Part shown: piece by piece, positions 4,697 to 58,235 of the stretch | Numbering within the stretch: the first letter of the stretch is position 1 | Layout: the number at the start of each line of letters is the position of its first letter | NCBI GenBank assembly: GCA_000433675.1 | Contig: FR893565.1 | Coordinates: 55-64,054, forward strand | Source of the DNA: Clostridium sp. CAG:433 | GTDB lineage: Bacteria; Bacillota_I; Bacilli_A; RF39; UBA660 | Length of the DNA stretch: 64,000 bases | Direction of reading: 5' to 3' | The notes under the pieces: generated by a model | The model's input: only the letters and a program-made list of their open reading frames with translations | What the model was told of the DNA's origin: nothing | Database searches by the model: none | Position numbers and translations under genes: made by a program

Positions 4697-4758
4697 TATA
4701 AGTGATTATAACACATTTTTCCCTTTAAATTCAAGGTATTTTACATTTTGTTTATGTA

Positions 4759-4787
4759 AAGAAAAAAGGTTTATTATTAAACCTTTA
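4759..4787 (-). terminator. Rho-independent terminator ending the adhesin-locus transcription units
   Basis: The hairpin AAAGGTTTAATAATAAACCTTT is followed by a T-run on the minus strand, directly after the stop of the 4788-5396 gene. Confidence 0.6.
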
Positions 4788-5396: not shown

Positions 5397-5407
5397 TTTT
5401 ACCTCCA

Positions 5408-8071: not shown

Positions 8072-8097
8072 AAAAAGAGTTCAAATGAACTCTTTTT
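8072..8097 (-). terminator. Rho-independent terminator after the giant adhesin gene
   Basis: The hairpin AAAAAGAGTTCA-ttt-TGAACTCTTTTT is followed by a T-run and abuts the TAA stop. Confidence 0.65.
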
Positions 8098-20000: not shown

Positions 20001-22447
20001 CCTTGATCTATAAAATTAACGTTATATTCATTTATATTATATACCGCATATAATGTTATACCTTCAGTTATTAATGTATTAAAATCAAATTCTTCTCCAT
20101 CTTGTGTAGTTGACCAATATTTAAATGTATAACCTATTTTTCCTTGGCTTTCTATTTTTTCAACTTTATTATTATAATCTACCTTTTTAGTTGTTATTCT
20201 ATTTTCATCATTAAATATTACTGCATTTTTTATGATTTCATATTTTGAATATAATTTTTTATTTTCTTTTATTTTAGTTGTAAAATCAAAATTTTTGTTA
20301 TTTTCTATCCATCCTGTAAATGTATATCCTGTCTTGATTACAGTAGGAACTTCATTACTATTTATTGTATTATCATAGTCTACTTTTATTGTTTTTATTA
20401 GTTTATTACTATCATAGAACTCTACATTATATTTATTTATTTCATATACTGAATATAATGTTAAATTTCTTGTTATAGGTAAATTTAAATTATATTCTTT
20501 CCCATTCTCTTTTTTCGACCAATATTTAAACGTATAGCCTTCCATTGATACCTTTGGTGCGATTACTAGTGATCCTGCTTCTAGTTCTTGTTTATCTATT
20601 TCTTTTCCTTTATCAATAAAAGTTACTGTATATTTATTAATATCGTACACTGAATAAAGTGTTATATCTTTTGTTACTTTTGTACTTAAATCATAACTAT
20701 CACCATTTTCTTCTAGCGACCAATATTTAAATGTATAATATTCTTTTGATGGACTTGTTGGAACTTTTATATTTTCTCCATATTCAATTTCTTGTTCATC
20801 ATATTTTTCTTTTTCATTTATAAATGTTACTGTATATTTATTTATTTCATATACTGAATAAAGAGTAATATCTTTTGTTACTTTTGTGCTCAAATCATAT
20901 TCTTTTCCATTTGGTTCTTCTGACCAATATTTAAATGTATATCCTTCTTTTGATACCTTTGGAGCATTTAAACTTCCATTTTCTTTTACTTTTTCTGTTT
21001 TAACTATTTTTTCATTATCTACATATGTTACTGTATATTCTTTTATATCTTCTGTTTGTCCATATAATACCAAATCTTTTGTTACTTCATTATTAAAGTT
21101 ATATTTATTTGTATATTTCTTATCTGTATACCATCCTTTGAAGTTTTTATTATCTACTTTTGGTTCTTTTATTTTTTCTCCTTCTAGTACTGTATCTTCT
21201 TTATATGTTTTTCCATCTAAGATATATACTACATTTTCATATATTTCTCCTTTCGCGGTTACTTTGTTTATATATGTCTTTGCTTCACTTGTACTTTCTA
21301 TATCAAGTGTTAAGCCTTCTTCTCTTTTTTCTCCTGCATTTAATGTTATTCCTTCTAAGCTTCTGTTATATAAAACTCCATTCTTTTCTTCCCATGATGT
21401 ATTCTTTTCTTTATTAAATGTTAAGCCTTCTGGTACTTCATCTTTTACTACTGTTACTACTCCTGATTTCTTTCCTGTATTTTGAACAGTTATTTTATAT
21501 TTTACTTCACCAGTCATATTTTTAACATTTCTTAAAGCTTGTTGTACTTTATCTAAGTTTCCATATTTATATGTTGTTGTTTTTCCACCATTTACTATTG
21601 TCATTTCTGTTATTTGTTTTTTTAATTCTATTTTATATGGCGTTACTTCTTTTACTACTATATTTAATTTTGATGATCCTGATATATTTACTTTTTCTTC
21701 ACTTACTTTTTCATATATATCTTCATCAATTTCTAAATTGTATTCTCCTTCTTCTATATCACTAAATACATAATTACCATTTTCGTCTGTATATGTTTTC
21801 TTTATTATTTCTCCATCTTTTTTAAGAGCTAATTCTATATTTGATACATTCATTGATTGTTTATCTTGTACATTTCCTGTTAAACTGTTATTTTTTACTT
21901 CTACATTTTGTACATTTAAATTTGTATATTTTTCTTCACTTACTTCTTTTATTTTGATTTTAGGAGTTGCTTTATATCCATTTGGCGCACCCTCTAATTT
22001 CATAACAAGTTTTAATTCATTTTCTTTATTTACCTTTGCATTTTTTACTGTTATCTTTATATTTTTTCTGTTTTCAGAAACAGTACTTGTCACATCACCA
22101 TTTGTTATATCTTTGAAACTTGCATATTTTTCATTATCATCTAAACTAGCTTCAATTATAACATCTCTTTCTTTTATATTTTCATCAGTTGATAATGAAT
22201 ATTTAATTACATAGTCTATTTCATCATAACCCTTGCTTGTAATTAAATTATCTACTGCTGCTTCATTTATATTCGCACTTAAAGAAGACGTAACATTATT
22301 TATTACAGCCTTAGATACTTTTACCTTTCCTTTATCAAAATCCATATTCCCTATTTTTAATATTCCTACGATTGCTCCTACAACTACTATCATCATCATC
22401 AAAGCAACATATTTTCTTGTTCTTAACTCTTTTAATTTCATATACAA
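8096..22447 (-). CDS. Giant (4783 aa) multi-domain cell-surface protein/adhesin
   Basis: N-terminal signal/TM segment. Cna-B/SdrD-like motif (DENGNYVFSDIEEGEYNL). TIGR01451/DUF11-like motif (YKITVQNTGKKSGVVTVVKDEVPEGL). Ten Listeria-Bacteroides (Flg_new) repeats of about 70 aa with the GYTFKYWS...TKDITLYSVY pattern. A central Cys/Trp-containing globular module of about 330 aa. Four PPC-like beta-sandwich modules ending in KG.xYY.xF.Y. About four Asn/Gly/Thr-rich parallel beta-helix modules, each closing with a (F/L)xFYDG(I/K/M)(I/L) motif. A C-terminal hydrophobic segment followed by the basic tail KEQRKLSRKV, with no LPXTG. The probable true start is the ATG two codons inside the track TTG, with GGAGAG at 8 nt. 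Confidence 0.85.
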   Translation of the reverse strand: MYMKLKELRTRKYVALMMMIVVVGAIVGILKIGNMDFDKGKVKVSKAVINNVTSSLSANINEAAVDNLITSKGYDEIDYVIKYSLSTDENIKERDVIIEASLDDNEKYASFKDITNGDVTSTVSENRKNIKITVKNAKVNKENELKLVMKLEGAPNGYKATPKIKIKEVSEEKYTNLNVQNVEVKNNSLTGNVQDKQSMNVSNIELALKKDGEIIKKTYTDENGNYVFSDIEEGEYNLEIDEDIYEKVSEEKVNISGSSKLNIVVKEVTPYKIELKKQITEMTIVNGGKTTTYKYGNLDKVQQALRNVKNMTGEVKYKITVQNTGKKSGVVTVVKDEVPEGLTFNKEKNTSWEEKNGVLYNRSLEGITLNAGEKREEGLTLDIESTSEAKTYINKVTAKGEIYENVVYILDGKTYKEDTVLEGEKIKEPKVDNKNFKGWYTDKKYTNKYNFNNEVTKDLVLYGQTEDIKEYTVTYVDNEKIVKTEKVKENGSLNAPKVSKEGYTFKYWSEEPNGKEYDLSTKVTKDITLYSVYEINKYTVTFINEKEKYDEQEIEYGENIKVPTSPSKEYYTFKYWSLEENGDSYDLSTKVTKDITLYSVYDINKYTVTFIDKGKEIDKQELEAGSLVIAPKVSMEGYTFKYWSKKENGKEYNLNLPITRNLTLYSVYEINKYNVEFYDSNKLIKTIKVDYDNTINSNEVPTVIKTGYTFTGWIENNKNFDFTTKIKENKKLYSKYEIIKNAVIFNDENRITTKKVDYNNKVEKIESQGKIGYTFKYWSTTQDGEEFDFNTLITEGITLYAVYNINEYNVNFIDQGNAYGDTQKVKYNKIAVKPETDPIKEGYTFKYWSLDENGVAYDFNTKITKDTTLYSVYSVNSYKVSFVDNGTKYIEDETIEYNKVALKPETDPSKEGHTFKYWSLEENGVAYDFNAKITKDITLYSVYSVNNYKVSFIDNGTKYIEDETIEYNKAAIKPETDPSKVGHTFKYWSLGENGTAYDFSTKITKDTTLYSVYEANEYTVKFMDGDNLFKQEQVKYGLKATKPSENPTKEHNLFKTWTLNDKEYDFNLPVIDNMILRSSYEEIEKPSISHVPTEWTNNKVTVTITSSHEDYKYLYKIDTGEYKEYTGPFDIDYNCTVVAKSVKENVDSITESHDITNIDKIKPIINSLNETNVSGTSFDINVSTIDNESGMKQIHIYKDDLLETTIVYTENYNEEKNSTYTFNDLISGNDYKIKVIAEDVAGNLSEAKEITVKTEEKIVARIIGRENKLFEDENLYENFSSLERAIKACPSNQCTIEMVTDTKESVEVLEGQDITLNINGKTITGVKDTYTINNGGNLIIKDNAEEAGSIVNNAGVALKNETTGVLTLGELEDELVVSTTKPYINGGTFGVVNEYIDKNTKGRFNFYDGMIAGNIAIEGEVNDKPYLYNASVVTSDNRQVATLKILEDAEARIVRTGVYYTKIDKAVEDTNSGTLSEPTTTNTNLMQGFSNVDDTGFTYDSETNTLSSEPGKSVKAYTVIDLTGYENDQYLFISSDAIDTYYGNFEVIVRENDAYGNNISQTKTTDDTTKRDNYKFYLTKGKKYYIRLDYTTYSQNETNMVTIYDMFFQKINKYDVDENTEFETISSSYGFEYDKTTRTLKSNNQYMQNTTAFSYIEVDLTNETEDKEVIINASLDTLYYGNYGNIVINEDNSKLSSASYSALGYMYVNSSSQHNIGPYNYSQTLKKGKKYYLQFYYFKGYDNYSEPDYTYNNSKDQFIINSIDVVGIGDKENIDLSTSLRTNYYGIDSYDSSYDRYSISSNAPYGEKFDSYVKIDLTESKTDKIIDFNLALNSYSSIYITSNNKDSKKELIINNMNNTLLSFFSNYSYYINGNSNYYDFRDYKYVLPKGSVYYVHFASYNPEGKPHPYIKNISLIPVTDNIINIGTLPHLKGTIDDSNKSNLPYVTDDGTADSNFRFIGKDTKNYVKFNNELWRVIGIFNTTDADGNYAKRVKLVRNDSIGSNIVWDSSSSKVNNGYGVNEWSQAAVMKLLNPGYENNKVLHDSGSEIVTNNSLYWNKKSGKCLNSGGLSTTFCDFTSIGLNDSAKSMIDSVLWNTGAISNDTQNLTPYQMYTYERGDKNGKTDFDSSSYPTTDLVDRTTTWFGKVGLPYPSDYIMASGDGSGNDRSKCMSSNSNVYGDCSSNNNWMGVNLSSPLMTMSPIYGASFPSFTAAMITALYTMPAANNYYVLKPTVYLNPKVKITSGSGTQNDPFNIELGEEENTTLYYGLVPDLIKEDVKEEETEINDEDETLDYIYVKNEPAYGFTYNSEKGVFTNENKGIANTTAISYIKIDLTNATSDMPIDINYNISKNDNYSMGFINLMKNDLTKINYNNSSSYSKDSLLVTSNKSSSGTISKVLEKGNIYYLQFAYEKDGNLPVSDTNADSFEIGITYLNDDDKTNDYIRYDGVTTTLNKEVDTVQLIKDLNISNSLQIESTKSVELDLNGHTLTTTSSDPVITNNGSLKVTDSKYVPTYANRIEDFNSQISDFKTVKYDTSDFSIFCNNSTSTKKCSYNSFSYGNISISSRETYMNSTFSNYKINFDSKYKSIVGTITLPKASSSFGYVTIGLSSDKNVNESSFDVQKRFVRTSTAAQTFNFELKPTKIGEYYLKICLPRTQISLRINEINSKIDIPTLSDSDYVSSIYSSASSAIKNNEGAYLSVEKTLVYTKDNSTSSSGVDNYGKLSIGNGGYVRAYAYGVNNRETGEIVEGSGTIASTSNYSLYTKSIKKNNIKGYTFVGGSIYNQSNSDLTLDNVIIRDYNYSSAIIDSSIYKLTINNSSIIVPSSTSSYAFKLSEKGMLEINNSNIYGSQAIDNGIKNSYSMGKKDIKINNSYIEGTVSSNTNKKVEINNSTLGDIYNGSSTIDIKDSTINSIDFNSCTLNMDNVIIQSMSLFENSNSTVTMKNMDMVNTKIENSKNMTIEENVTAMNITNYADGEFKYNNSKINGILSNRGNANINNTQFADGTIQNLGILTAENTTMTSTKSNLTAVTNEGTLNLNDGFKILNYKKGIYGKGSTINLGSDDETVSSDNIIIDTIDYSIETINESIVNYYDGTLISDNEEVINTSINLVPNGYDVDYSNTNDINKISLNKIIDKDYVAQIGETKYKTLSEAIENVNGDNNQTKIKIIKDIYTVLNSTVDSNKNIELNLDDKKIVYYKKQNPLIVNNGTLKLKTSDSSSEISRVYGESLLENNGTLENNGINLKCYYSNINTFINNGNMNFNSGSIVHNFSGNYKTSKPMRFITNNSKLNVSGGTFSIRNISNDTDNIIYTSSDATTNINDGNFEVGYIAVYSDGITNITGGTFKTSYAIKTSANGNVDVSGGNYSEANNLIYNSGIAKIHDLNSSLKYIGTNDNSIEFTNNVFSTNNYNVFTNNGNSAIFNNNNITSTSMVTSTYGILNFKKGNVIVNGGKYVAACVPFQLTGTANITVTGSNVSSSGNSAIYSTTTGDVNIISGTYTSADGIAIRNTSENTITFGIKGDTNDDGSLNVSISNPEITGTTAGIKTGSKTVFKFYDGIFTGTTPIDGNVYDTEDEYTVIQVDNSKYLHKDEKETMVARNVDTEKEYSTLQKAIDEATDGNTIQVISEISTLASAEATVVPEGLNVTIDVNGYKINENNALFLSNLGELTITNSNYNETTPSIDDGGIYNTGGSNVIDNSGILKLNKIYIESTVECEMISNKVNGELNIKESILYNSYGKTSSNSVIFNSGTATVDSIKINTSGKSITNNGTINISNSQIRSSDALTNNGILVSENDNITGPITNSSTFTANNITIPSSSTITNTKDFTLNKGTIEYVGLIKNESNMNITGVTITSSSYGCIIKNYGSNSPILNISNSNITSKYYDMADDELHSLDILTGQLILNNTNITRDPRFSNQTTTDSDATEFGLIRTYDAKSVEIIGGIFNFKFGKFLTVINPETTVKVDGATINTYNGIFMQSKHVGNTINLKNVEMKNQKYNILNCNSYYSSVNCGKFSPKFSSYSGGLKLSIEGGNYSGAVDTVILSDYDNITLNNTEIDGNIKGYQSGVSITSSTVKNIIGVSRVTMESGKITSIYDMYSYTSTPTVIIKSGTVTGSISPMKNQGDINVTLGIKGDSNVSTTDPMISGRITATYLNLYFYDGIVKKNISKPIEVEDGYNVKVSTDGYYLVDTPVIKNTTSNKEYNNIRSAVNEISNNDTLQLLDNVWIYTNKIDGGIVNENMNMTFDINGKNIYTSNIPFINNGSVTMIDNVSSGKIDYESPIENNGTMEITGGDFAVTNNGNINNNGGTISGTNSSSGIFTQNSGIMNSFENSGTVNVTGGTVSGLTNNKITNITGGILSKIINTGQLKIQNATAKGFVLNNNSGSSIIDTLSGTAYISNNSTLTVSNSTLNSVNSSNRVFNNRYKGTLNITSGNYTSGSTECIYNDEGVLNIGEKGGVISITSPVIQGSKYAVNNAGTFNLYDGKLIGGTAPVSGTITEIEPGYKLSISDDTTNNTKVGYLVVIADDERVAMVNGINFTSLQTAINSVKDNTESNIVIYKDIELTEDIIVPENKIINLYLNGHTITYGDYSFVKNGTLTIIDSAPSESIGASIINTIEKVLNINQNGKNIIVYEMSDGSKLSTENTYNLYKKVDNEYKLLNMEKDEEVGRYITGSNNSEMTSIKGRIYLNNLEEGSYKLVSSDNKDIEFTITEDGKVNGNILENTNEKRKVIESALAYLIITIQTGVNQIKYIIYIVAMVSIILGLYFAFKEQRKLSRKV
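19350..20000 (-). repeat. Near-identical 210-nt tandem DNA repeats inside the giant adhesin gene, encoding Listeria-Bacteroides repeats 7-9
   Basis: Blocks starting at about 19561 and 19771 are more than 90% identical over about 200 nt, and a third copy follows. The period is 210 nt, or 70 aa. Confidence 0.7.
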
Positions 22448-30451: not shown

Positions 30452-31264
30452 TTAATATAAAAGACTTAAAAGTGTATTAAAATCAACTCTTGTTAAAAAT
30501 AATATTAAAGCAGAAATAGCTAAATATGGACCAAATGGAAGCATATGTTCATCTTTTCTATAAACATTTATTATTGCAACTGGAAGCGCTAAAAATGATG
30601 CTAAAAAGACTACTACAATTGATAATCTCCATCCTAAAACAAAACCAATTAGAGCCATCATTTTTATGTCTCCGCCGCCCATCGAATCTTTTTTAAACAA
30701 AGCATTTCCTATCATTCTTATTAAATACATTATTAGGAACATTGCCATTCCATCCATAAGTATAAATAAAAGTTCATATCCAAAACTTAATAAACTAGTT
30801 ATTACTTCAGTTTTATATAATATTATTAATTTTATTATTATAAGTACTATCGAAAAAAATATATTAACTTCATCTGGTATTATCATATATTTTATATCAC
30901 TAATCATTATTATTACCATTGCTGATATAAATGTTAATGAATAAATAATATTAATTATTTCTGGATATACATCTTTATATGCTAAATAACCAAGTACAAA
31001 AAGCACACCAGTTAGAAGTTCAAACATAGGATAAAAAAGTGATATCTTTTCATGACAATGTTTACATCTTCCTTTTTGAAATATATAAGATAGTATTGGT
31101 ATTAATTCTAGTGCACCAAGTTTATGATTACAATTAGTACAATGTGATGGTGGATATACAATAGACATATCATTTGGAAGTCTATAACCTACTACATTAA
31201 AAAATGAGCCAAAGCAAATACCAATTATAAATATCATTATACTGTAAATTATTATTTCCATCAT
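30452..31264 (-). CDS. Prepilin peptidase (A24 family; PilD/ComC-like)
   Basis: Polytopic membrane protein. An N-terminal CxxC...CxxC zinc-ribbon motif pair is present (CTNC ... CKHC). A conserved Asp-containing loop (SMGGGDIKMMA) is present. It lies immediately downstream of the platform-protein gene. Confidence 0.85.
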   Translation of the reverse strand: MMEIIIYSIMIFIIGICFGSFFNVVGYRLPNDMSIVYPPSHCTNCNHKLGALELIPILSYIFQKGRCKHCHEKISLFYPMFELLTGVLFVLGYLAYKDVYPEIINIIYSLTFISAMVIIMISDIKYMIIPDEVNIFFSIVLIIIKLIILYKTEVITSLLSFGYELLFILMDGMAMFLIMYLIRMIGNALFKKDSMGGGDIKMMALIGFVLGWRLSIVVVFLASFLALPVAIINVYRKDEHMLPFGPYLAISALILFLTRVDFNTLLSLLY

Positions 31265-31273
31265 GTTCTCCTT

Positions 31274-32980
31274 CTATAATATGTTTTCATACATACTAAA
31301 CATTGGTATTATTACTGCAAGTAATATTCCACCTACTACAACTGCTAAGAATATAATCATAAGTGGCTCAATTAAAGCCTTAATTCTTGTTATTGCATTA
31401 ATATGTTCTTCTGCATAATAATCTGCTACCTTCTCCATCATTAAACCTAATTGTCCTGTTTTTTCACCCGTAACAATCATTTGGTATGCTATATTTGGAA
31501 AAGCCCAATTATCTTTAAACGCTACTGATATATTTTCACCCTTTGAAAGAGCTATAACAGCATCATATATTATCGATTTATATATTTCATTATCTGTTAT
31601 TCTACCTAATATATCCATACTATCTGTTATAAATATATTATTATTAATAAGAGTCGCAAATGTTTTAGAAAACATTGTCATTTCGTTATAAATAATTATA
31701 TTACCTACGACAGGTATATGCATAATCATATATTGAATATTTGATTTAAATGAAACACTTTTTTTAAATAATATAACAAATGTAGATACTATTAAAAGTA
31801 TTACAAGTATTATTATTAAATACTTTGATCTAACAAAATTACTTATATTTATTATTGCTTTTGTAATACCTGGGAGTTCCGCACCTAGGTTTTTATAAAT
31901 ATTTACAAATTGTGGAACTACTGAAACAATAATATAAATAATTATTATAATTGCAAATATAAATACAAATAATGGATACATCATTGCATTTACCATTTCT
32001 TTTCTTGATTTCTCAACTGATTTATAATATTCTGCCTGTTCGTCTAATACTTCTGGTAAATCACCTGTCATTTCTGCAGCTTTTACCATATTTATTAAAA
32101 GTTTTGGAAATATTACACCCATTCTAATCATTGCTTCAGATAAAGTTGCTCCCATAGATAGTTCATATACAACTGATTTCCATATTGTTTTATCTGATTC
32201 TGTTTTAGATTGTGTTGATAATATTTTTATTGAATCTACTATTGGAATACCTGCTTTTAAATAAGTTGATAATTGTGTTAAATAAAATACTAATATAGAC
32301 TTTTTCATTGGTCTATTAAGTGCAATATCTGTATTAAACATATTGGCTTTAGCAACTGCTTTTATTTCATATACTTTATAACCTTCTGATAATAAATATG
32401 AATGAACATCAAGTTTTGAGTATCCTAAAAATGATCCTTTTTCTATTTTACCTTCTGGATTTAATGCAGAATACTTAAATATTAACTTTTCTGTACTTCT
32501 TTTAGCATCTTCTGAATTAATATCAAGCGCAACAATTTGTTTTCTTCTATCTTGTCTTTTATTTTTTTCAAATATATCTTTTTCTTTTATTTTTTGAAGT
32601 AAACTTTTTTTGTTTTGTTTTTGAAGTTCTTTTTGTCTTAACTTTTCTTTTCTCATTTCTTCTTTTGCTTTTTTATGCTCTTCTTTTGTTATAACAAATT
32701 CTTTAGCACTATCACTAGATTCATCATTTTTAAATTTTAATGTTTCATTTTTTATTTCTTCATCTCTAACATTTTTACTTAAATCTATTTTTTCTTTTGT
32801 GTTATTAGTATCTTTTTTCATAAGTTTATTAACTCCTAAATTTATACTTTTTACTATATTAAAAGGTAGTAAAATAATAAATAAAAATATTTTACCGATA
32901 TAACCAAAAATTGAAGTTTTATTATCTTTATCCATAATACCACCTATTATTCTATTTTCTATACTAGTATTATAACACAC
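31274..32980 (-). CDS. Type II secretion system F-family platform protein (PilC/ComGB-like). The likely true start is the ATG at 32933-32935.
   Basis: Two GspF repeats are present, with the characteristic 'kaamtYP' motif and three TM helices in the C-terminal two-thirds. The PilC-like cytoplasmic N-domain starts around FKYSALNPEGK. There is an unusual extra N-terminal region of about 150 aa with one TM helix and a Lys/Glu-rich coiled-coil-like segment. GGTGG sits 4-5 nt upstream of the second Met. A TATAAT box lies inside the track-predicted first codons. Confidence 0.8.
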   Translation of the reverse strand: MCYNTSIENRIIGGIMDKDNKTSIFGYIGKIFLFIILLPFNIVKSINLGVNKLMKKDTNNTKEKIDLSKNVRDEEIKNETLKFKNDESSDSAKEFVITKEEHKKAKEEMRKEKLRQKELQKQNKKSLLQKIKEKDIFEKNKRQDRRKQIVALDINSEDAKRSTEKLIFKYSALNPEGKIEKGSFLGYSKLDVHSYLLSEGYKVYEIKAVAKANMFNTDIALNRPMKKSILVFYLTQLSTYLKAGIPIVDSIKILSTQSKTESDKTIWKSVVYELSMGATLSEAMIRMGVIFPKLLINMVKAAEMTGDLPEVLDEQAEYYKSVEKSRKEMVNAMMYPLFVFIFAIIIIIYIIVSVVPQFVNIYKNLGAELPGITKAIINISNFVRSKYLIIILVILLIVSTFVILFKKSVSFKSNIQYMIMHIPVVGNIIIYNEMTMFSKTFATLINNNIFITDSMDILGRITDNEIYKSIIYDAVIALSKGENISVAFKDNWAFPNIAYQMIVTGEKTGQLGLMMEKVADYYAEEHINAITRIKALIEPLMIIFLAVVVGGILLAVIIPMFSMYENIL

Positions 32981-50125: not shown

Positions 50126-50380
50126 TTATATCAATATAAATTCAGTACCATTAACTATTCCAGAACCCTTAACATAAACATTAAGATCATAAACAATACA
50201 ACCATCTTTATCATATAAATTTAATTTATCAGTATCTACTAATGAATTATCTGATAATTCATTTATTACGTCAATACAATATTTTCTTATAGTTCCAACT
50301 TTTTTATTTATAGGTATAAATATATCATAACTTTTACTTAAAAGAGGAACATTTATTGTTATTAAAATCTTATTATTCAT
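50126..50380 (-). CDS. esaB: Ubiquitin-like T7SS protein EsaB/YukD
   Basis: 84-aa beta-grasp-sized protein immediately upstream of essC. The pattern 'ILITI...YD...P....VG.....I.......L.L.........L...GI.NG..L.L' resembles YukD. Confidence 0.7.
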   Translation of the reverse strand: MNNKILITINVPLLSKSYDIFIPINKKVGTIRKYCIDVINELSDNSLVDTDKLNLYDKDGCIVYDLNVYVKGSGIVNGTEFILI

Positions 50381-50405: not shown

Positions 50406-51728
50406 CTAGTTTTTCTTTGACGTTGGATTTGCTAAACTTTTAAGCATATCAGAAGCCTCTGGCACATTACTCTTCATACCTAATTGTTCTTGTAAATATC
50501 CATCATATGGATTCTTTTTTACTCCAAGTAACTCTTGTGACGCCTTGTCAAAATCAAAGTTTTTTGCACTTGTATTAGTTCTTCTCATTGTATTTACAAC
50601 TCTTGGGTCTGGGAGATCTTTTTCAGGTGGATTTACTAAATTATTATAATCTTCAAGGAAAGAACCTGTAGGCTTTTTTGTAAGTGTATCGTTAGGTGTG
50701 GTAGTTGCATGATAATCACTTGTTGATCTTGAAGAGAAGCTTCTTGATGGACCAGCTGTTGTACTACCTCCACCATCACCTGAACCTGATGGACTAACAA
50801 GTGAATTAACAATAGATTGAATTGTAGCATAATTATATCCTGCAGCAGCTAAAGCTTTCTTTCTAGCATCGCCATTACCCCATTTTCCTGCTAACACTTC
50901 TTTTGCGATTGCCATATCAGTTTTAAATGTACCAGAAACACCTTTTTTAGCATATTCTGTTAAGTTTGGTCTTTTTATATTTAAGCTTTGATATGCAGTG
51001 CTTCCTGCATATTTTTTACTACTTGCAGATTTTAATGATAATGTTGTATTATCTGGTAATTGTTTTTCAAGTAGTAAAATATTACTTAAATAGTTTGTCC
51101 ACCAACTATCAATTGAATCTCTTTTTTTCATTACTCTTTGATATGCTGATAAAACTCTATACCATCCATAATATAAATAACTATCTTTTCCAACTGTACT
51201 TTTCATAGAATAAAAATTTTTATAACTATTATATAAAGCTGATCCATATGAATCAAAATTAGATTTTAGATTTTTTAGTTTTTGGTAATTTATTTTAAAA
51301 CTATTATCTAATTGTAATTGCGAAGTGCTATATATATTGTTTGATGAAAAAGTTGCAAGGCCTGATGAATCATTTTGTAAATTATCTATAAGATAAACCA
51401 TATTTTTTAGTTCTGAAGAAATTTTTTGGGCATATGCTGTTTTTGTAGAATAATCTGTCGTACTCTTCATTTTTAATTGTTGTTTTTGAATTAACTCCGC
51501 ATATTGTAAAACTTTTAAATATCCTTTAAGGAAAGTAATTAAGTGATCAAGTTGTTCATAATGTGTTTTAAGTGCACTAGACAATTTTCTAATGGCTGAT
51601 GAATCACATACACTTTCTACATTTCTAAAATTGTATGTTTTTAATTTTCTTACTTCCTTTATACAGTCATTACAAGTCATTAGCAAGTTAGATATTTTTA
51701 TATCTTTAAAATAATTTGTATAATTCAT
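50406..51728 (-). CDS. T7SS-associated soluble protein with an N-terminal helical domain, one Cpl-7-type (CW_7) cell-wall-binding repeat and a Gly/Ser/Thr/Pro-rich disordered C-terminus
   Basis: The motif MAIAKEVLAGKWGNGDARKKALAAAGYNYATIQSIVNSLV matches the Cpl-7 repeat consensus (..ViaGkWGNGeeRk.rL..aGYdY.aVQ..VNel). No TM helix is present. There is an L-K-G motif at about residue 67 in a predicted helical N-terminal region of about 200 aa. It is located between the WXG100 genes and esaB. Confidence 0.6.
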   Translation of the reverse strand: MNYTNYFKDIKISNLLMTCNDCIKEVRKLKTYNFRNVESVCDSSAIRKLSSALKTHYEQLDHLITFLKGYLKVLQYAELIQKQQLKMKSTTDYSTKTAYAQKISSELKNMVYLIDNLQNDSSGLATFSSNNIYSTSQLQLDNSFKINYQKLKNLKSNFDSYGSALYNSYKNFYSMKSTVGKDSYLYYGWYRVLSAYQRVMKKRDSIDSWWTNYLSNILLLEKQLPDNTTLSLKSASSKKYAGSTAYQSLNIKRPNLTEYAKKGVSGTFKTDMAIAKEVLAGKWGNGDARKKALAAAGYNYATIQSIVNSLVSPSGSGDGGGSTTAGPSRSFSSRSTSDYHATTTPNDTLTKKPTGSFLEDYNNLVNPPEKDLPDPRVVNTMRRTNTSAKNFDFDKASQELLGVKKNPYDGYLQEQLGMKSNVPEASDMLKSLANPTSKKN

Positions 51729-51744: not shown

Positions 51745-52389
51745 CTACTTTATAAATTTTAATAATTCACTTAAGGATATCGCACCTGATGCAGTACTAT
51801 TACTATGTGATGCATTATCAACAATTTTGTCTGTTTGCTTAACGTTACTTCCAATACTATTTAAATCTTTTACCTTTTCATTTGTATTTGTAGTAGTTGT
51901 GTTAGTTTTTTGTGTCTTATCAGGTATCGGATAACTAGGATTAAGGTCTATTATTCCTGTTACAAGCGTATCAGTTGTTTTTAACTTTCCAATATAATTA
52001 GGTGTTTTTATGTTTATTTTTCCAATACCACTAACTATTTTTACATTTGATCCACCTGTTTTTGGAATCGAGATAGTTGGTGCTGAAAAACCTAGTTTTG
52101 CTATTTGCTCTGCATTTATTTCAGTATCTGTTGCTCTATTTTGTTCAACAATTTCTTTTATTGTTTCTAAATATAAAGGTAATGTTTTTTCTGTTACTTC
52201 TGGTATTTCCTTATATTTTTTACTAATTTCATTATAAAATTTATTTGCTGCTGTTCCTTTCCAAAAGCCACTTCTACTATTTGAGAATGAGTTAACTTTT
52301 TCAAATTGTTCATTAAGATCTCTAACAACTGCATTAATTCTATCACATATGTCAATGACAGCATCATATTTGATTGATGTATTATTCAC
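51745..52389 (-). CDS. WXG100-family protein with a roughly 110-aa Thr/Asn-rich C-terminal extension
   Basis: The N-terminal approximately 100 aa form a helical hairpin with a central W-x-G (SGFWKGTAANKFYNE), aligning with the three downstream small WXG100 proteins. The extension ends ...LSELLKFIK. Confidence 0.65.
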   Translation of the reverse strand: MNNTSIKYDAVIDICDRINAVVRDLNEQFEKVNSFSNSRSGFWKGTAANKFYNEISKKYKEIPEVTEKTLPLYLETIKEIVEQNRATDTEINAEQIAKLGFSAPTISIPKTGGSNVKIVSGIGKINIKTPNYIGKLKTTDTLVTGIIDLNPSYPIPDKTQKTNTTTTNTNEKVKDLNSIGSNVKQTDKIVDNASHSNSTASGAISLSELLKFIK

Positions 52390-52403: not shown

Positions 52404-52703
52404 TTATATTTTTCTATTTAAAAAATGTGTTTCAAATTTTTGATATGCTTTTTTTACTTCTTTAATCGTGTTAGCATCATCTTCAACCTGATTTTGATAT
52501 GCTTGAAAAAATTTCACATAGTCTTCCATATTACTACAAAATTTTTCTGATGCTGCTCCCTTCCAATATGTGTTCAATTCACTTAAATATTGGCTTATTT
52601 TTGTATTATCACTTTTTATTGCTGCCGCACATTCGTTTATTTCTTCTGCTACCCTATCAAATTCAGCATATTCTACAATTAAATCTTCCATATTTTCCTC
52701 CAA
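52404..52703 (-). CDS. WXG100-family (EsxA-like) secreted protein
   Basis: 99 aa with a central W-x-G (LNTYWKGAASEKF). Helical-hairpin size and composition. Confidence 0.7.
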   Translation of the reverse strand: MEENMEDLIVEYAEFDRVAEEINECAAAIKSDNTKISQYLSELNTYWKGAASEKFCSNMEDYVKFFQAYQNQVEDDANTIKEVKKAYQKFETHFLNRKI

Positions 52704-52771: not shown

Positions 52772-53056
52772 TTAACCCATAATTTGAGTATCTGTTTTTT
52801 TATAATTTTCAACAACTGATGTTAAATGAGCTGCTTCATCTGTTACAGCTTTATAAAAATCAGCAAATTTAGCACTAATTGTATTAAATTTTTGTTTTGA
52901 TTCCATTGCAGCATTACCAGCCCAAACATCTTCATTACCAATTTTAGATGATAATGTTGTTATTTCATCTAATATTGATTGCATTTCTCTTGCATAACTA
53001 TTTAAATTTGAGCTTACACTCATAATTTGAGAATATGTTAATGTTGATCCATTCAT
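52772..53056 (-). CDS. WXG100-family (EsxA-like) secreted protein
   Basis: 94 aa with a central W-x-G (EDVWAGNAAMESKQKF). Confidence 0.7.
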   Translation of the reverse strand: MNGSTLTYSQIMSVSSNLNSYAREMQSILDEITTLSSKIGNEDVWAGNAAMESKQKFNTISAKFADFYKAVTDEAAHLTSVVENYKKTDTQIMG

Positions 53057-53068
53057 ATTTTGTTCCTC

Positions 53069-53362
53069 CTATCTGATTCCGTCTTGGTTTGCTTCGTTAA
53101 CTTTTTGGTATGCATTTGCTGCACTTATTAGAAACTCACCCATTTCGCAAATTGTTTTATTTAAGACTTTCATATTTTCTATTTCAGCAGCTACTGCACT
53201 TGTATATTTTTCTGCATCGCTACCTTTCCAAGAATTTCTAAGATTTTCATTTTCACTAGTTATTTTATTTAAAACTTCTGAAAAATCATTACCTTTTTCT
53301 AGAATACTATTACCGATTTGTCTTGTTTGATTATAATCAATACTTAAATCCACAACCTTCAC
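53069..53362 (-). CDS. WXG100-family (EsxA-like) secreted protein
   Basis: 97 aa with a central W-x-G (LRNSWKGSDAEKY). GTG start, with GGAGG immediately upstream. A TTGACA-18-TATTAT promoter lies about 30 nt upstream. Confidence 0.7.
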   Translation of the reverse strand: MKVVDLSIDYNQTRQIGNSILEKGNDFSEVLNKITSENENLRNSWKGSDAEKYTSAVAAEIENMKVLNKTICEMGEFLISAANAYQKVNEANQDGIR

Positions 53363-53386: not shown

Positions 53387-53416
53387 ATAATACCACTTAT
53401 ATTTACATCATGTCAA
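53387..53416 (-). promoter_or_regulatory. Internal SigA-type promoter (TTGACA-18-TATTAT) ahead of the first WXG100 gene
   Basis: Seen on the minus strand in the 84-nt gap between the GT2 pair and the WXG100 genes. A second TTGACA lies 34 nt further upstream. Confidence 0.5.
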
Positions 53417-53446: not shown

Positions 53447-54379
53447 TCAATCATTATATATTTTTTTTGATAAATTAAAAAATAGATATTCAACCATATT
53501 TAATACATCATTATCACCTATATTTCCAAAAATAATATCATTTTTATCAGAGACTTTTAATTCAATACCATATTCATTAATTTTTTTATATAATTTGTTA
53601 AAGCTATCTTTCAGTTTTACAACATCACTTTTTGTTTTAAAGTATTTTACATATACATTTGAAAAATGAATTAATTCATTATATAGCTCATAAATTATTT
53701 TATATTCATCGAAGCCCCTTTTATCTGCTTCTTCTGCCATCCATAGCATATTTTCACATAATATAGGAACCTCATTATAACAATAATCTTCTATATTATT
53801 GGTTATACTTCCTTCTGTACATGAATAAAGTAATACATCGCTATTAATATATGAATATTTGTCTGTACCTATTTTCAAAAGTCTATTAAAACAATTATCC
53901 TCGCCATTTCTGCTATCATTAAATTGAAACTTATTTTCATCAATATATTTTCTTTTATATAATTTGCCATGTAATTGAAAACTAAAATCATTCGAAATAG
54001 TTAGTATGGTATTATCATAATTTTCATAATAAACATTACCGCAAATAATATCATTATTCTTAATATTTTTTAAAAGTGTTTCTAACGAATAAATATCAAT
54101 AAACATATCATCTGCATCTAAAAAATAAATATATTCACCATTTGAATGGTCTAAACCGTATTGTCTAGCAACTCCTGGTCCACTATTTTTATCAAGTTTA
54201 TATTCTATTATGTTAATTCTGTCTTTAAATTTATTTATAATATCTTTATAATCATGATCTGAACAATCATCAATTATATATACATTAATTTTGTCATTAA
54301 CCGTTTGCATACATATACTCAATAATGCTTTAGAAATTGTTTTATGTGCATTATATGCTGGAATAATTATATCTATCAT
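53447..54379 (-). CDS. Family 2 glycosyltransferase (GT-A fold)
   Basis: The N-terminus IDIIIPAYNAHKTI, together with the IIDDCSD and FLDADDMF (DxD) motifs, places it in GT2. It is paralogous to the upstream gene. Its start ATG directly abuts the upstream stop (TAAATG). Confidence 0.85.
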   Translation of the reverse strand: MIDIIIPAYNAHKTISKALLSICMQTVNDKINVYIIDDCSDHDYKDIINKFKDRINIIEYKLDKNSGPGVARQYGLDHSNGEYIYFLDADDMFIDIYSLETLLKNIKNNDIICGNVYYENYDNTILTISNDFSFQLHGKLYKRKYIDENKFQFNDSRNGEDNCFNRLLKIGTDKYSYINSDVLLYSCTEGSITNNIEDYCYNEVPILCENMLWMAEEADKRGFDEYKIIYELYNELIHFSNVYVKYFKTKSDVVKLKDSFNKLYKKINEYGIELKVSDKNDIIFGNIGDNDVLNMVEYLFFNLSKKIYND

Positions 54380-55324
54380 TTAATCATCCTCCAATCCTAT
54401 TTCTATTAAAAAATTATCGAATGTAACTAATGGATTAAGTACATTTTCAGTATATCCCTCTGTTACTGCACATTTCATTTTATATTGTAATATGTTATAT
54501 CTATCTATATCCGATATTTCAAGAATATAATCATCATAAATTTCTTTGATTTTTTTTATATTCTTTATTAATTCTTTATTTTTATTTAAAAAATCAAATC
54601 CATAATAAATAGTTAAAAGTGATTCATATGATAAGGATGCTAAATTTTCTTCTGAACATTTTCCTTTTACTCCACACTCTAATGCATAAAGCATTGATTT
54701 AGAATAATTGTATATAGAATTTTCTCTATAATTTTCCTTTCTAGTTAATGAGTTTTCATTATTCATCCATATATATGTTTTTTCATTAACAATATTCATC
54801 TTAGGATTATATAATAAAACTAAATGATTAAATGCGTTATCTTCTTCTGCATAGTAATTTGGAAATCTAATATTATTATCCTCTAGAAATTTTCTTCTGT
54901 AAATTTTACCATGAAGCGCTACTGTATCATTAACAAAAGTATTAAATTTATGCTCTCTAGTTTCTTCTAAAAAAGTACTAAAAACAACATCTAAAGACTC
55001 TTGTTCTATCTTTTTATACAATGTAATTATGGATAGTGGTGTTGCAAAAATATCATCTGAATCTATAAAAACAACATATTCACTGTTTGATTGATCTAAT
55101 CCATATTGTCTCGCATAACCAGGTCCTTTATTTTCATTTAATTTTAGTTCTTTTATGTTAATAAAATCTTTAAAAAAATCTATTTCTTTACTATAATCCT
55201 TTATAGAATTATCATTTATAATATATACATTTAAATCTTCTGAATTTCTTTGATACGCTATAGAATATAATGTTCTTTCAATCGTTTCATGAGCATTATA
55301 TGCCGGAATAATTACATCTATCAT
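54380..55324 (-). CDS. Family 2 glycosyltransferase (GT-A fold)
   Basis: IDVIIPAYNAHETI, IINDNSIKD and FIDSDDIF (DxD) motifs. AGGAG sits 8 nt upstream of the ATG. It is the first long gene of the minus-strand operon that is divergent from lexA. Confidence 0.85.
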   Translation of the reverse strand: MIDVIIPAYNAHETIERTLYSIAYQRNSEDLNVYIINDNSIKDYSKEIDFFKDFINIKELKLNENKGPGYARQYGLDQSNSEYVVFIDSDDIFATPLSIITLYKKIEQESLDVVFSTFLEETREHKFNTFVNDTVALHGKIYRRKFLEDNNIRFPNYYAEEDNAFNHLVLLYNPKMNIVNEKTYIWMNNENSLTRKENYRENSIYNYSKSMLYALECGVKGKCSEENLASLSYESLLTIYYGFDFLNKNKELIKNIKKIKEIYDDYILEISDIDRYNILQYKMKCAVTEGYTENVLNPLVTFDNFLIEIGLEDD

Positions 55325-55381
55325 ATTTTACATCTCCTAGTATTTTAATATTAACACAAAAGAAAATAAAAAAAAACAAGG

Positions 55382-55513
55382 ATTTGAGTTTTTATGAATA
55401 TATTTCCTCATAAGTTTCCTGTTTTGATAAATTATTATCTATATTACTTGCTCTTTCCATCATAAGTAAGAATCCTAAAACTCCTACAACAATAACTACT
55501 AAATAACCAAAAT
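55382..55513 (-). CDS. Putative 43-aa single-TM peptide (MKKYFGYLVVIVVGVLGFLLMMERASNIDNNLSKQETYEEIYS), divergent from lexA. Candidate SOS-induced cell-division inhibitor (SosA/YneA-like position).
   Basis: This ORF is below the track's size cut-off and was found by translating the minus strand. It has a weak SD (GAAGGG). It starts about 40 nt from two LexA operators. Coordinates are accurate to within about 10 nt because of my manual indexing in this region. Confidence 0.35.
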
Positions 55514-55554
55514 ACTTTTTCATACTAACCCTTCTTTCTGATTAAATTCTATCA

Positions 55555-55596
55555 CGAACAAACATTCGTGTCAATAATGCTTCGAACAATTGTTTG
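55555..55596 (+). promoter_or_regulatory. Two Cheo-box-like LexA operators (CGAACAAACATTCG and CGAACAATTGTTTG). The second overlaps the lexA -35 box.
   Basis: The Firmicutes LexA consensus is CGAACRNRYGTTCG; each site matches at 12-13 of 14 positions. They are spaced 14 nt apart, between the divergent lexA gene and the small-peptide/GT2-T7SS operon. Confidence 0.7.
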
Positions 55597-55622
55597 ACAT
55601 TTTACACTTTGTATGTTAAAAT
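55594..55622 (+). promoter_or_regulatory. SigA-type lexA promoter, TTGACA-17-TAAAAT
   Basis: A perfect -35 hexamer, a 17-nt spacer and an A/T-rich -10 lie about 25 nt upstream of the lexA start. Confidence 0.6.
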
Positions 55623-55646
55623 GAAATTGTTATAAGGAGAGATATA

Positions 55647-56258
55647 ATGGAAAAGTTAACAAGTAAGCAAAATAATGTATTAGATTATTTAAAACAATTC
55701 CTTGCTAAAAAAGGATATCCACCTACTGTGAGAGAAATATGTGCCGCACTTAATTTATCTTCACCAGCAACTGTTCATGCACATTTAAATACATTAGAAG
55801 AAAAGGGATATATTTCAAAAGGTAATTCAAAAAATAGAGCTATTGAATTACTTGTAAAAAATGAATATGAAGAAGCAGATAGCGTGGATATTCCACTTTT
55901 AGGTAAGGTTGCTGCTGGTAATCCTATTGAAGCAATTGAAATGCCTGATGAATATTTTACTGTACCATCTTACTTAATCCCTGCAAAAAGAGAAGTATTT
56001 GCTCTTAGAGTAAACGGTGAATCAATGATTAATGCTGGTATTCATGATAATGATATAGTTATAATTCAAAGACAACAAACTGCGAACAATGGTGATATGG
56101 TAGTTGCTATGACTGATGATTATGGTGTTACATTAAAAACATTTTATAAAGAAAATGGATATTTCCGTCTTCAACCAGAAAATGATACAATGGCTCCAAT
56201 AATATTAGATAGTGTTACAATAGTTGGAAAAGCAATTGGATTATATAGAAAAATATAA
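55647..56258 (+). CDS. lexA: SOS transcriptional repressor LexA
   Basis: N-terminal winged HTH. The Ala-Gly autocleavage site (KVAAGNPIEA) and the S24 peptidase Ser/Lys dyad (NGESM ... TLKTF) are present. AAGGAG is the SD. Confidence 0.95.
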   Translation: MEKLTSKQNNVLDYLKQFLAKKGYPPTVREICAALNLSSPATVHAHLNTLEEKGYISKGNSKNRAIELLVKNEYEEADSVDIPLLGKVAAGNPIEAIEMPDEYFTVPSYLIPAKREVFALRVNGESMINAGIHDNDIVIIQRQQTANNGDMVVAMTDDYGVTLKTFYKENGYFRLQPENDTMAPIILDSVTIVGKAIGLYRKI

Positions 56259-56441: not shown

Positions 56442-57323
56442 TTATACTAATTCATACTCTCTTGCTATTATTCTGTCATCACTACAATATTCAATCACAT
56501 ATTTATTTTCTTTCTTGCATATTATTATTCCTATTGTTTTATTTTGATTTATACTTTTTAGATTTTTATCTATATAATTCATATAAAATTCTATTTGTCC
56601 TATATGTTCTTTTCTTAATTCAGTTACTTTTAGTTCAACAACTACAAAGCAATTAAATTCATAATTAAATAATAATAAATCAATATAATTATATCTATCT
56701 CCTATTTTTATTTTATATTCATTATCTATAAAACTAAATTCGTTGCCTAATTCTTTTAAAAATAATGATATATCTTCTAATATCAGTTTTTGAAATATTT
56801 TTTCTGATATTTCATTGTAACCACTTGTATTTCTTATTTGAATTGGATTCTTTACTAAATCTGGTACTTTTAATTCTTCTTTAGTTTTTAATTTTTTCTT
56901 TGTTTCTTCATCTAATCTTTCATATTCATTATTTTTTATTCTTTCTCTTAATTCTCTTACTGATAAGTTTTGTTCTTCTGTTATTTTTATATAATAATTT
57001 ATTTTATCTATGTCAAACCAAATAAGTTCACAATAATGGGAATAACTTAATTTGTCCGACACTGTCGGATGTTTTATTAAAACTTCATAAAATCTTCTAA
57101 AATATCTTAATCTTGTTGGTGTATAACCTTTACCGAACTCATTTGTAAGTCTTTTAGAATATTTTTTTATTATTCCTTCTCCATAATGTTTACCAGCTTC
57201 AGCTAATAATTTTCCAACATTATAATATGTAGTTAAATCACTTTTATTTTTACTATAATCTTTTACCTTTTTAGTAATTTCATTATTTACTAATTCTGTT
57301 TTTATTTCATCATAATAATTCAA
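56442..57323 (-). CDS. DUF1016/YhcG-family PD-(D/E)XK nuclease-like protein
   Basis: 293 aa. The N-terminal DUF1016_N-like helical region and the C-terminal PDDEXK signature (D...VVVELKVTELRKEHIGQ) are present. It starts at TTG, with AAGGAGG 7 nt upstream. Confidence 0.7.
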   Translation of the reverse strand: MNYYDEIKTELVNNEITKKVKDYSKNKSDLTTYYNVGKLLAEAGKHYGEGIIKKYSKRLTNEFGKGYTPTRLRYFRRFYEVLIKHPTVSDKLSYSHYCELIWFDIDKINYYIKITEEQNLSVRELRERIKNNEYERLDEETKKKLKTKEELKVPDLVKNPIQIRNTSGYNEISEKIFQKLILEDISLFLKELGNEFSFIDNEYKIKIGDRYNYIDLLLFNYEFNCFVVVELKVTELRKEHIGQIEFYMNYIDKNLKSINQNKTIGIIICKKENKYVIEYCSDDRIIAREYELV

Positions 57324-57335
57324 ATTTAATCCTCC

Positions 57336-58235
57336 TTATGTTAATTCATATTCTCTTGCTATTATTCTATCATCAGAGCAATATTTAATTACATATTCAT
57401 TGTCATGCTTACAAATAATGATTCCTACTGTATCATTTTCTTCAATAGTTTTTATATTTTTATCAATATAATTCATATAAGTCATAATCTGACCAGTATG
57501 TTCCTTCTTAAGTTCAGTTACTTTTAATTCTACAACTACATAACACTTGTATTTAATATTATAAAGTAGTAAATCAATATAATTATATCTATCATCTAAT
57601 TTGATCTTATATTCGTTATCAATAAAAGTGAATCCATTACCTAATTCTTTTAAAAATGTTGGAATGTCCTCAAGTATTAACTTTTGCAGTATTTTTTCAG
57701 ATATAATTTCTTTTTTATTACTATTTCTAATATGAATAGGATTTTTAACAAAGTCTATTATTCATATATCATCCCTACTTTTCAATTTATTTCTTGCATC
57801 AGCGGGTATTCTTTCGTACTCATTAGATTTTATTTTATTTCTTAATTGTCTAACATCTAAATTATAGACTTCACATTGATTGACATAATATTCTATTTTA
57901 TTTATATCATCAAATGATAACATTTCATACCAATGACTCCATGTTAACTTTCCCGACAATGTCGGGACTTTTTCAATTATATTATAAAATTGTTTAATTT
58001 TATATAATAATGATGACGTATATTTTTTACCAAATTTATTTGTTAATCTTTTAGAATAGTCCTTTATTACATTTTTTCCATACTTAGTATCTACATTTTT
58101 AAGTAGTTCTCCAACTTCTAAATATGTTTTTATTTTTTCCTTTGCTTTTGAATAATCTTTTACGTTTTGATATATTTCATGATTTAATATCTTGTTTTCT
58201 ATTTGTTGATATGTTTTATCTATTTCTTCTATCAT
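57336..58235 (-). pseudogene. Tandem duplicate of the DUF1016/YhcG gene, interrupted by a single in-frame TGA at 57762-57764
   Basis: The 157-aa ORF 57762..58235 aligns with the N-terminal half of the intact copy. The downstream 141 codons (57336..57761) remain in the same frame and translate to the PDDEXK half (VVVELKVTELKKEHTGQ ...AREYELT*). TGA is a genuine stop in this genome, since gyrA ends in TGA. Confidence 0.6.

Follow-up and report, generated by a model that had tools for sequence, protein, structure and literature searches.

The p440 gene and the parts of its product

The window analysed here is a stretch of 64,000 nucleotides (nt) of contig FR893565.1 of Clostridium sp. CAG:433 (assembly GCA_000433675.1), an uncultured bacterium of the human gut, and carries on its minus strand an operon for a type VII secretion system (T7SS). 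Within this operon lies the gene for a protein of 440 amino acids (aa), here called p440, in which a helical N-terminal domain composed of two modules is followed by a single CW_7 (Cpl-7-type) peptidoglycan-binding repeat and by a hypervariable tail. The start codon of the gene can be fixed because the N-terminus MNYTNYF is kept across the p440 family, and a ribosome binding site (RBS), AGGA, is found ~9 nt 5' of the ATG. The gene and the parts of its product are as follows.

50406..51728, minus strand: p440 gene, open reading frame (ORF) and translation, 440 aa; ATG at 51728, stop codon at 50406-50408
51360..51728, minus strand: Module A, residues 1-123, a probable divergent WXG100-type hairpin and a third helix, with C41-D42-S43 at the WxG turn
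51288..51359, minus strand: A-B linker, residues 124-147, variable and disordered, its length differing in alignments
51051..51287, minus strand: Module B, residues 148-226, a helical hairpin with a DSYLxYGW turn and a KRDSIDxWWTNYxxNxxxLExxLPD helix
50925..51050, minus strand: closing segment, residues 227-268, with conserved P254 and Y259; its strand 264-267 pairs with strand 2-4
50796..50912, minus strand: single CW_7 (Cpl-7-type) peptidoglycan-binding repeat, residues 273-311, PF08230
50409..50795, minus strand: tail, residues 312-440, hypervariable and predicted to be disordered, with Ser, Thr, Gly and Pro abundant in its first half

A sequence-only reading of this DNA had proposed that positions 50406-51728 encode a soluble protein, and this gene is real, though on the minus strand: p440 has neither a signal peptide nor a transmembrane (TM) segment, the top 19-residue Kyte-Doolittle mean being 0.86. 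In scans against Pfam and NCBIfam, CW_7 is the sole family matched and no catalytic domain is recognisable, in agreement with what that reading had said. With no TM segment and no other match in the two databases, p440 does not have the identity of an EssB, EsaA or EssA protein either. The same reading could not assign the architecture to a described family, and the present analysis agrees, the N-terminal domain having no model in Pfam or NCBIfam.

The identical protein at NCBI, CDD29967.1 from 'Clostridium sp. CAG:433', is named 'glycosyl hydrolase family 25'. The catalytic domain of glycosyl hydrolase family 25 (GH25; PF01183) was searched for in p440 and not found, CW_7 alone being matched. 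Judged by these scans the public name is a mis-annotation that needs correction, and it was probably transferred via the CW_7 repeat. p440 is present in 699 blocks of the assembly collection, mainly from human-gut metagenomes, and its relatives carry the label 'Bacilli bacterium' in the cluster metadata.

The CW_7 repeat retains the ligand residues of Cpl-7

The peptide EVLAGKWGNGDARKKALAAAGYNYATIQSIVNSL, which had been singled out as a near-consensus Cpl-7 repeat, corresponds to residues 277-310 of p440. PF08230 (CW_7) matches residues 273-311 with 65 bits and E=5e-18 over profile positions 2-40 of 40, the Pfam gathering cut-off being 25 bits, and in a phmmer search p440 matches the solved Cpl-7 wall-binding domain 5i8l with E=5e-21 and also 4cvd. 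These scores are far above chance and indicate that the repeat is genuine. In a model calculated with AlphaFold2 (AF2) from a 13-sequence alignment, the repeat consists of three short helices (residues 271-279, 287-295 and 300-311) with a predicted local distance difference test (pLDDT) score of 68-78.

In Cpl-7, each of the repeats accommodates GlcNAc-MurNAc-L-Ala-D-isoGln in a groove with R271 at its centre, further muropeptide contacts are made by V260, I261, G266, N267, Q286 and V289, and substitution of R271 or Q286 by alanine weakens binding (PMC5705596). In the alignment with 4cvd and 5i8l, the contact residues map with identical spacing onto V278, L279, G284, N285, R289, Q304 and V307 of p440, in which R289 and Q304 are the counterparts of R271 and Q286. 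W283 is likewise among the retained ligand residues, and the sole contact position that differs is Q262 of Cpl-7, which is A280 in p440. Among the 13 members of the close family the muropeptide-contact positions are invariant. Given these residues, binding of peptidoglycan by the CW_7 repeat of p440 is plausible and, because CW_7 is a wall-binding module, an extracellular location of p440 is implied. For that reason the role of a chaperone, which the sequence-only reading had offered as an option, is unlikely.

The N-terminal domain is a bundle of two modules

A first AF2 model, calculated from the 13-sequence family alignment of close relatives, was poor (pLDDT 48) and was replaced by a run with 36 sequences aligned from the family search described below. 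In the latter, residues 1-268 of p440 form one confident helical bundle with a pLDDT of 88.8 and a predicted template modelling score (pTM) of 0.85. The helices of Module A span residues 12-29, 35-39, 44-88 and 93-115 (pLDDT 86-98) and those of Module B residues 148-173 and 183-223 (pLDDT 95-97), and in the linker pLDDT is <50 over residues 122-139. The first ~225 aa are accordingly helical, and the earlier estimate of a helical N-terminal domain of ~200 aa stands. Module B is highly conserved at W189 (29 of 30 sequences), W209 (28 of 30) and P225 (30 of 30). In the closing segment the motif PxLxxYxKxGxxGE[IF] is kept across the family; the pairing of strands 2-4 and 264-267 explains why this motif and the MNYTxYF start are both conserved.

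When HMMER was run exhaustively with a profile of the N-terminal domain against 1.84 billion representatives, it returned 42 clusters at E<=1e-3. As delimited by this profile, the N-terminal 268 aa of p440 represent a small, previously undescribed family. Its two modules also occur on their own: Module A in standalone proteins of 99-161 aa, and Module B in standalone proteins of ~100-125 aa as well as at the N-terminus of proteins of 446-1094 aa.

p440 is part of a T7SS operon

The T7SS context that the sequence-only reading had assigned to p440 was confirmed by an essC gene on the 3' side of p440 and three WXG100 genes upstream of it. In the 5' to 3' direction of the minus strand, the order is two glycosyltransferase family 2 (GT2) genes, a promoter-like site, WXG1, WXG2, WXG3, p214, p440, p84, EssC, transketolase and SirA. 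The T7SS genes lie on one strand at spacings of 12-80 bp with no convincing minus-strand terminator between them, a strong RBS, GGAGGGAGG, is located downstream of the promoter-like site, and there are no prophage genes beside p440. The elements of the operon other than p440 are the following.

53387..53416, minus strand: promoter-like site of the T7SS operon, TTGACA-18-TATTAT, 11/12 plus TG extension; a consensus match only
52772..53353, minus strand: WXG1 and WXG2, the conserved WXG100 pair (PF06013), 85-96% identical between strains; candidates for the core EsxA-type components
52404..52691, minus strand: WXG3, the third and variable WXG100 gene (PF06013 E=8e-11, DUF3130 E=9e-5, TIGR04197 E=0.0015); candidate partner of p440
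51745..52389, minus strand: p214, whose WXG100 domain (FWKG motif) is extended by a Thr/Asn/Ser-rich part that terminates in ISLSELLKFIK; candidate co-secretion partner of p440
50126..50380, minus strand: p84, a small conserved protein, 88-96% identical between strains, with homologues in the related loci L010 and L013
45490..50103, minus strand: EssC, the T7SS membrane ATPase (TIGR03928 with 991 bits at a cut-off of 778; FtsK_SpoIIIE)

The DUF3130/TIGR04197 (Lap-type) signal of WXG3 is weak. A homologue of p214 is encoded directly 5' of the p440 homologue in the related loci L007-L009, L012 and L014; in L010 it is one gene farther away on the 5' side. p84 occupies the position of the ubiquitin-like EsaB/YukD, but this identity, which would be positional only, could not be confirmed, since neither its sequence nor a profile matched YukD in Pfam or in the PDB; p84 may have diverged strongly from other ubiquitin-like proteins, or may be of another kind.

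WXG3, p214 and p440 form a variable cassette

We compared four syntenic loci, i.e. the window and the loci L007, L008 and L009 of close strains. When the window is compared with L007 at the amino-acid level, LexA is 99.5% identical, EssC 96%, p84 96%, WXG1/WXG2 94-95% and transketolase 94%, whereas WXG3 reaches 56%, p214 46% and p440 59%. Outside these three genes, the locus is 86-99% identical between strains. The three genes co-vary over the four loci: one type is common to L007 and L008 (95%, 94% and 85% identity for WXG3, p214 and p440, respectively), and the window and L009 each have another. At the nucleotide level, identity is 92-98% up to the 5' edge of the cassette at ~52,735 in the spacer between WXG2 and WXG3, then falls to 60-70% across WXG3 and 36-44% over the tail of p214, amounts to 58-77% for the helical domain of p440, and is 89-98% again at ~50,386, where the first comparison window lies mostly within p84. 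The boundaries of the cassette thus coincide with gene ends. Inside this variable cassette, the CW_7 repeat is an island of 82-90% nucleotide identity.

At the C-terminus of p214 (51745-51790, minus strand), the tails diverge almost wholly, yet they end in ISLS(E/D)LLKF(I/M)K(K); this motif could be a recognition or secretion signal. The co-variation of WXG3, p214 and p440 matches a published pattern in which the genes beside a substrate encode its small, cognate WXG100-like partners (PMC11217815).

The tail of p440 has a nucleotide identity of 17-30% between strains and is predicted by AF2 to be disordered throughout (pLDDT 23-31). The tails of L007 and L008 differ although the rest of the cassette is common to both, and this divergence implies that the tail is exchanged independently of the cassette. 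Several tail alleles are simple SPSRSFSSRSTSGYHASTT repeats, and the tails in general are low-complexity or repeat-like with no hydrophobic segment and no Pfam family; a word-index search with the distal p440 tail gave nothing useful. The description of the tail by the sequence-only reading as a Gly/Ser/Thr/Pro-rich segment of ~130 aa holds for the first half, in which these residues make up 54% (residues 312-376), but not for the second half, in which their share of 25% (residues 377-440) is about background.

Possible kinship of the N-terminal domain to WXG100 and LXG proteins

An L-K-G tripeptide had led the sequence-only reading to consider an LXG-like domain. In the AF2 model, L67-K68-G69 is located inside helix 44-88 and not at the hairpin turn, its Gly is retained in 7 of 25 family members, and PF04740 (LXG) gives nothing at E<=1 against p440, so that the argument from the tripeptide fails. 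LXG is also absent among the 25 most frequent families listed for 36 N-terminal domains of the p440 family. With respect to gene neighborhood, p440 shares with LXG systems the adjacent genes for small helical Lap-type partners, WXG3 and p214 being directly upstream and co-varying with it; it has no C-terminal toxin domain with a downstream immunity gene, the disordered tail being without a Pfam match and p84 following 25 bp downstream.

The actual hairpin turn of Module A consists of residues 40-43, which connect helices 1 and 2. Of 24 relatives, 17 have Trp at position 41, followed by E or D and then by S, A or G, giving W-E-G/S, a WxG-type motif; p440 itself has C41-D42-S43 and lacks the W-x-G motif at this turn. 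Sub-threshold WXG100 matches are found in 4 of 36 family members (best E=3.3e-5) and YwqH-like matches in 3 of 36. In profile-profile comparisons with hhalign, the N-terminus of p214 aligns with the WXG100 proteins of the locus at 97% probability (E=3.5e-11; reversed control 2.7%), and Module A aligns with the WXG domain of p214 at 81% (E=1.4e-6, 99 columns; reversed control 0.5%) and with the WXG100 proteins of the locus at 17.6% (reversed control 2.7%). A sequence-profile search of the PDB gave nothing significant, S. aureus EsxA appearing at E=0.057 amid coiled-coil noise. While its original argument fell, the broader idea that p440 may contain an export domain of the WXG100/LXG superfamily is supported by the Trp of its relatives at position 41 and by the hhalign match of Module A to p214.

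Modules A and B are fused or neighbors in T7SS loci

Every family member that was looked up sits among WXG100 genes and/or beside EssC, i.e. the context is exclusively that of T7SS loci. L010 encodes three WXG proteins, a p214-like protein, p84, a CW_7 protein and EssC. In L012 a p214-like gene is followed by two tandem paralogues with fused modules (4879-7192), neither with CW_7, and in L014 a p214-like gene is followed by one A+B protein. In L011 the modules are split, and the gene for a 119-aa Module A protein is followed by that for a protein consisting of Module B and LysM and then by EssC (63% identity). L013 (EssC 49% identity) comprises four WXG genes and then, directly upstream of EssC (1958-6515), a set of four in this order: a 161-aa protein with a match of 33.8 bits to the profile of Module A, DUF4176, a 1094-aa protein with Module B at its N-terminus and a weak HD-domain signal, and a 132-aa ORF. 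This set of four resembles a helper/chaperone/effector/immunity group that uses the targeting modules of p440. A word-index search with the Module-B N-terminus of P0161 gave nothing useful. In all forms met, Modules A and B are either fused or encoded by neighboring genes, and on this basis we argue that they are binding partners.

Among the 43 clusters of the N-terminal-domain family, CW_7 is present in 3 and LysM in 1, and the remainder have Ser/Thr/Gly/Asn-rich tails. The presence of LysM in the position of CW_7 in another branch suggests that wall attachment is a recurring theme.

A model for p440 and its alternatives

Combining the domain anatomy with the genomic data, we favor, with moderate confidence, a model in which p440 is a substrate of the adjacent streamlined T7SS that is attached non-covalently to the cell wall by its CW_7 repeat, displays its variable tail, and has WXG3 and p214 as its cognate partners. 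In this model, (i) p440 would be made in the cytoplasm, where the fused A+B bundle would present a WXG-type export domain, with Module A being the equivalent of the small 'Lap'-like helpers that are encoded separately in related loci and the fusion providing a ready-made export-competent bundle, (ii) WXG3 and p214 would bind this bundle as cognate co-secretion partners, (iii) EssC would recognise and export the complex of p440 and its partners, and (iv) outside the cell, CW_7 would hold p440 on the peptidoglycan of the cell's own wall with the variable tail exposed at the surface. With regard to (ii), Lap proteins are reported to bind LXG toxins as cognate partners (PMC11217815). Secretion, wall binding and the physical complex are the parts of this model that we infer.

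Several results weigh against the model. PF06013 (WXG100) has no match in p440, and for Module B no kinship to the WXG100 proteins of the locus is detectable by hhalign (3.9%; reversed control 0.1%). Foldseek, the fold comparison that the sequence-only reading had named, found no related solved fold. The absence of a signal peptide alone is no proof of export by a T7SS, since phage CW_7 proteins also have none. Given the few clusters with CW_7 or LysM, wall binding is not the core function of the family. In L004 (11626-16184 of the metagenome-assembled genome GCA_958451395.1), essC is called as two ORFs of 330 and 1174 aa; either the gene is frameshifted or a pseudogene in this strain, or the assembly is at fault. 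Finally, EssA, EssB and EsaA were not found in the locus or in the 64-kb window.

The missing EsaA, EssA and EssB are also what would be expected if p440 were a secreted structural part, wall-anchored and wall-spanning, that replaces these three components of the canonical T7SSb. A similar role, in forming the outer section of the export path, has been suggested for some mycobacterial ESX substrates. Proteins of the p440 type and the p214 type are encoded in every locus of the lineage examined, even where EssC is 49-63% identical, peptidoglycan-binding modules recur in the form of CW_7 and LysM, and the long Ser/Thr/Gly/Asn-rich tails could span the wall. However, an allelic identity of 46-59% beside an EssC with 96% would be odd for a core part of the machine, the wall-binding module is absent from most family members, the core genes that are missing here could be encoded in another part of the genome, and Module B heads an effector-like protein of 1094 aa, which is a better fit to the targeting of cargo. 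We consider a structural part of this kind rather unlikely. A bolder version, in which the T7SS of this prevalent gut lineage, without EsaA, EssA and EssB, exports its own wall-anchored outer part, with p440 (CW_7/LysM) and p214 forming a wall-spanning and surface-exposed end, strikes us as distinctly doubtful; if true, exposure to phages and to host immunoglobulin A would keep p440 as divergent allelic cassettes, and a monoderm T7SS would have a conduit built from substrates.

Alternatively, p440 could be an antibacterial polymorphic toxin, in which the helical domain targets the protein to the T7SS, CW_7 docks on the wall of a competitor and the tail is a small, unrecognised toxin. A conserved N-terminal trafficking region with an independently swapped C-terminus is the layout of polymorphic toxins, the Module-B-led 1094-aa protein followed by a small ORF has a toxin-immunity-like order, and interbacterial antagonism is the best-documented role of T7SSb (PMC10765036). 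Yet there is no space for an immunity gene, because p84 begins 25 bp after the p440 stop codon and is 88-96% conserved in the four alleles, and tails that are disordered and low-complexity or repeat-like, with no hydrophobic segment and no Pfam match, do not speak for a toxin, so that we find this proposal quite improbable. A decayed cell-wall hydrolase or endolysin remnant that merely happens to lie in the T7SS locus and is not exported is hardly credible. CW_7 is otherwise almost confined to lysins, ~1,000 CW_7-only matches carrying GH25, amidase, CHAP or GH73, and the NCBI name of CDD29967.1 points in the same direction, but the domain scans found neither GH25 nor another catalytic domain, the N-terminal domain is a conserved, confidently folded bundle that occurs in T7SS loci only, and the gene order is kept across strains and distant relatives with no flanking prophage genes. 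By these comparisons a lysin origin of this kind is largely refuted.

Comparison with known systems

A close parallel to p440 is offered by the LXG polymorphic toxins of T7SSb with their targeting partners Lap1/Lap2 (DUF3130/DUF3958), such as TelA-C of S. intermedius and YxiD of B. subtilis. Like these, p440 is soluble and without a signal peptide, has an N-terminal helical domain of ~200-270 aa that may belong to the WXG100 superfamily and a variable C-terminal region, is encoded near EssC and directly follows small co-varying WXG100-like genes. Unlike these, it has no PF04740 match and C-D-S in place of LxG/WxG at the turn, its helper-like Module A is fused to the cargo instead of being a separate protein, and its passenger is a peptidoglycan-binding repeat with a disordered tail, with no toxin domain and no immunity gene. 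With EsxA/EsxB and PE-PPE pairs p440 shares helix-turn-helix hairpins, two of which combine to make a four-helix bundle, and in some genomes A and B are likewise adjacent genes; in contrast to them, the hairpins of p440 are in one chain of 440 aa, the Trp of the turn is lost and Module B has no detectable sequence link to WXG100.

The CW_7 repeat has the three helices and has kept the GlcNAc-MurNAc-L-Ala-D-isoGln contacts of the Cpl-7 endolysin of pneumococcal phage Cp-7 and of CW_7 hydrolases. Cpl-7 has three repeats, a catalytic module and a place in a phage lysis cassette, whereas p440 has one repeat, is non-catalytic and belongs to a chromosomal secretion operon, and its CW_7 is fused to a T7SS-type helical domain. 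In its proposed role p440 resembles EsaA/YueB of T7SSb, a protein of the T7SS locus that is proposed to cross the wall and be surface-exposed; unlike this large polytopic membrane protein, p440 has no TM segment and shows no sequence similarity to it.

As in the T7SSc-j described by Garrett, Higginson and Palmer in 2024 (PMC11217815), the locus combines an EssC-type ATPase and WXG100 proteins with a small protein at a TsxB-type position, lacks the membrane components of T7SSb and has a putative substrate flanked by small WXG100-like genes. Unlike T7SSc-j, it has no kinase, phosphatase, FHA protein, TsxI or beta-propeller, its gene set matches none of these systems and NCBIfam assigns its EssC to the T7SSb type. 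That survey refers neither to the families of p214 and p440 nor to LysM or peptidoglycan-binding substrates (PMC11217815).

Full-text searches of the literature found no paper that pairs type VII secretion with CW_7 or Cpl-7, and searches for T7SS with LysM or peptidoglycan-binding terms found, by titles and abstracts, no comparable substrate. To date, the T7SSb substrates that have been characterised are for the most part WXG100 proteins or antibacterial toxins, which leave the cell. What appears to be new here is a putative T7SS substrate in which a wall-binding passenger is joined to a targeting domain of two modules that had not been described. If p440 is a substrate that is kept on the wall of its producer, as we favor, this would widen the roles of T7SS, for example to surface display, adhesion or the building of the export route. 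The fused and split forms of A and B provide a natural test case for the pairing of Lap-like helpers with the targeting domains of effectors. The sharp edges of the three-gene cassette in a near-clonal locus suggest that a surface structure of this common gut bacterium is under strong pressure to diversify, and this cassette could serve as a marker for strain typing.

Flanking genes and other features of the window

The two GT2 genes (53447-55324, minus strand), which encode soluble enzymes, are located directly 5' of the T7SS operon and are kept in L007 and L008 and absent in L009. In L014, an ORF at 5451-6056 has an N-terminus that is GT2-like by eye. It is speculative that the Ser/Thr-rich tails of p214 and p440 are substrates of the GT2 enzymes and receive sugars prior to export. 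Glycosylation by these enzymes as an obligatory part of the system was rejected, because L009 lacks the genes.

An ORF of 43 aa (55392-55523, minus strand), located between lexA on one side and the GT2/T7SS genes on the other, is predicted in each of L001-L009, with no family match recorded, and is immediately 5' of WXG1 in L009. lexA itself lies divergently beside the locus in all strains (55324-55647 region). We draw no link to the SOS response, because the canonical Firmicutes SOS box GAAC-N4-GTTC does not occur in the 64-kb window, the region upstream of lexA included. The stretch from comEC to lexA is a variable island that adjoins the T7SS locus and contains other genes in L007, L008 and L009. 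At 56442-58235 (minus strand) are tandem YhcG/DUF1016 PDDEXK nuclease genes, of which the upstream copy is broken into parts of 157 aa and 49 aa and is intact with 299 aa in L002.

Elsewhere in the window, an ORF of 4783 aa (8096-22447, minus strand) presumably encodes a huge surface protein, its product containing at least 8 copies of the Listeria-Bacteroides repeat (Flg_new) as well as SdrD-B/CarboxypepD_reg-like domains. A prepilin peptidase (PilD-like) gene and a PilC/T2SSF gene are located at 30452-32980 (minus strand), ~22 kb from the gene (5408-8014, minus strand) for a protein of 868 aa with an N-terminal type-IV-pilin methylation motif and BspA-type leucine-rich repeats, and the 868-aa protein may be an adhesin displayed on a pilus tip or by a pseudopilin.

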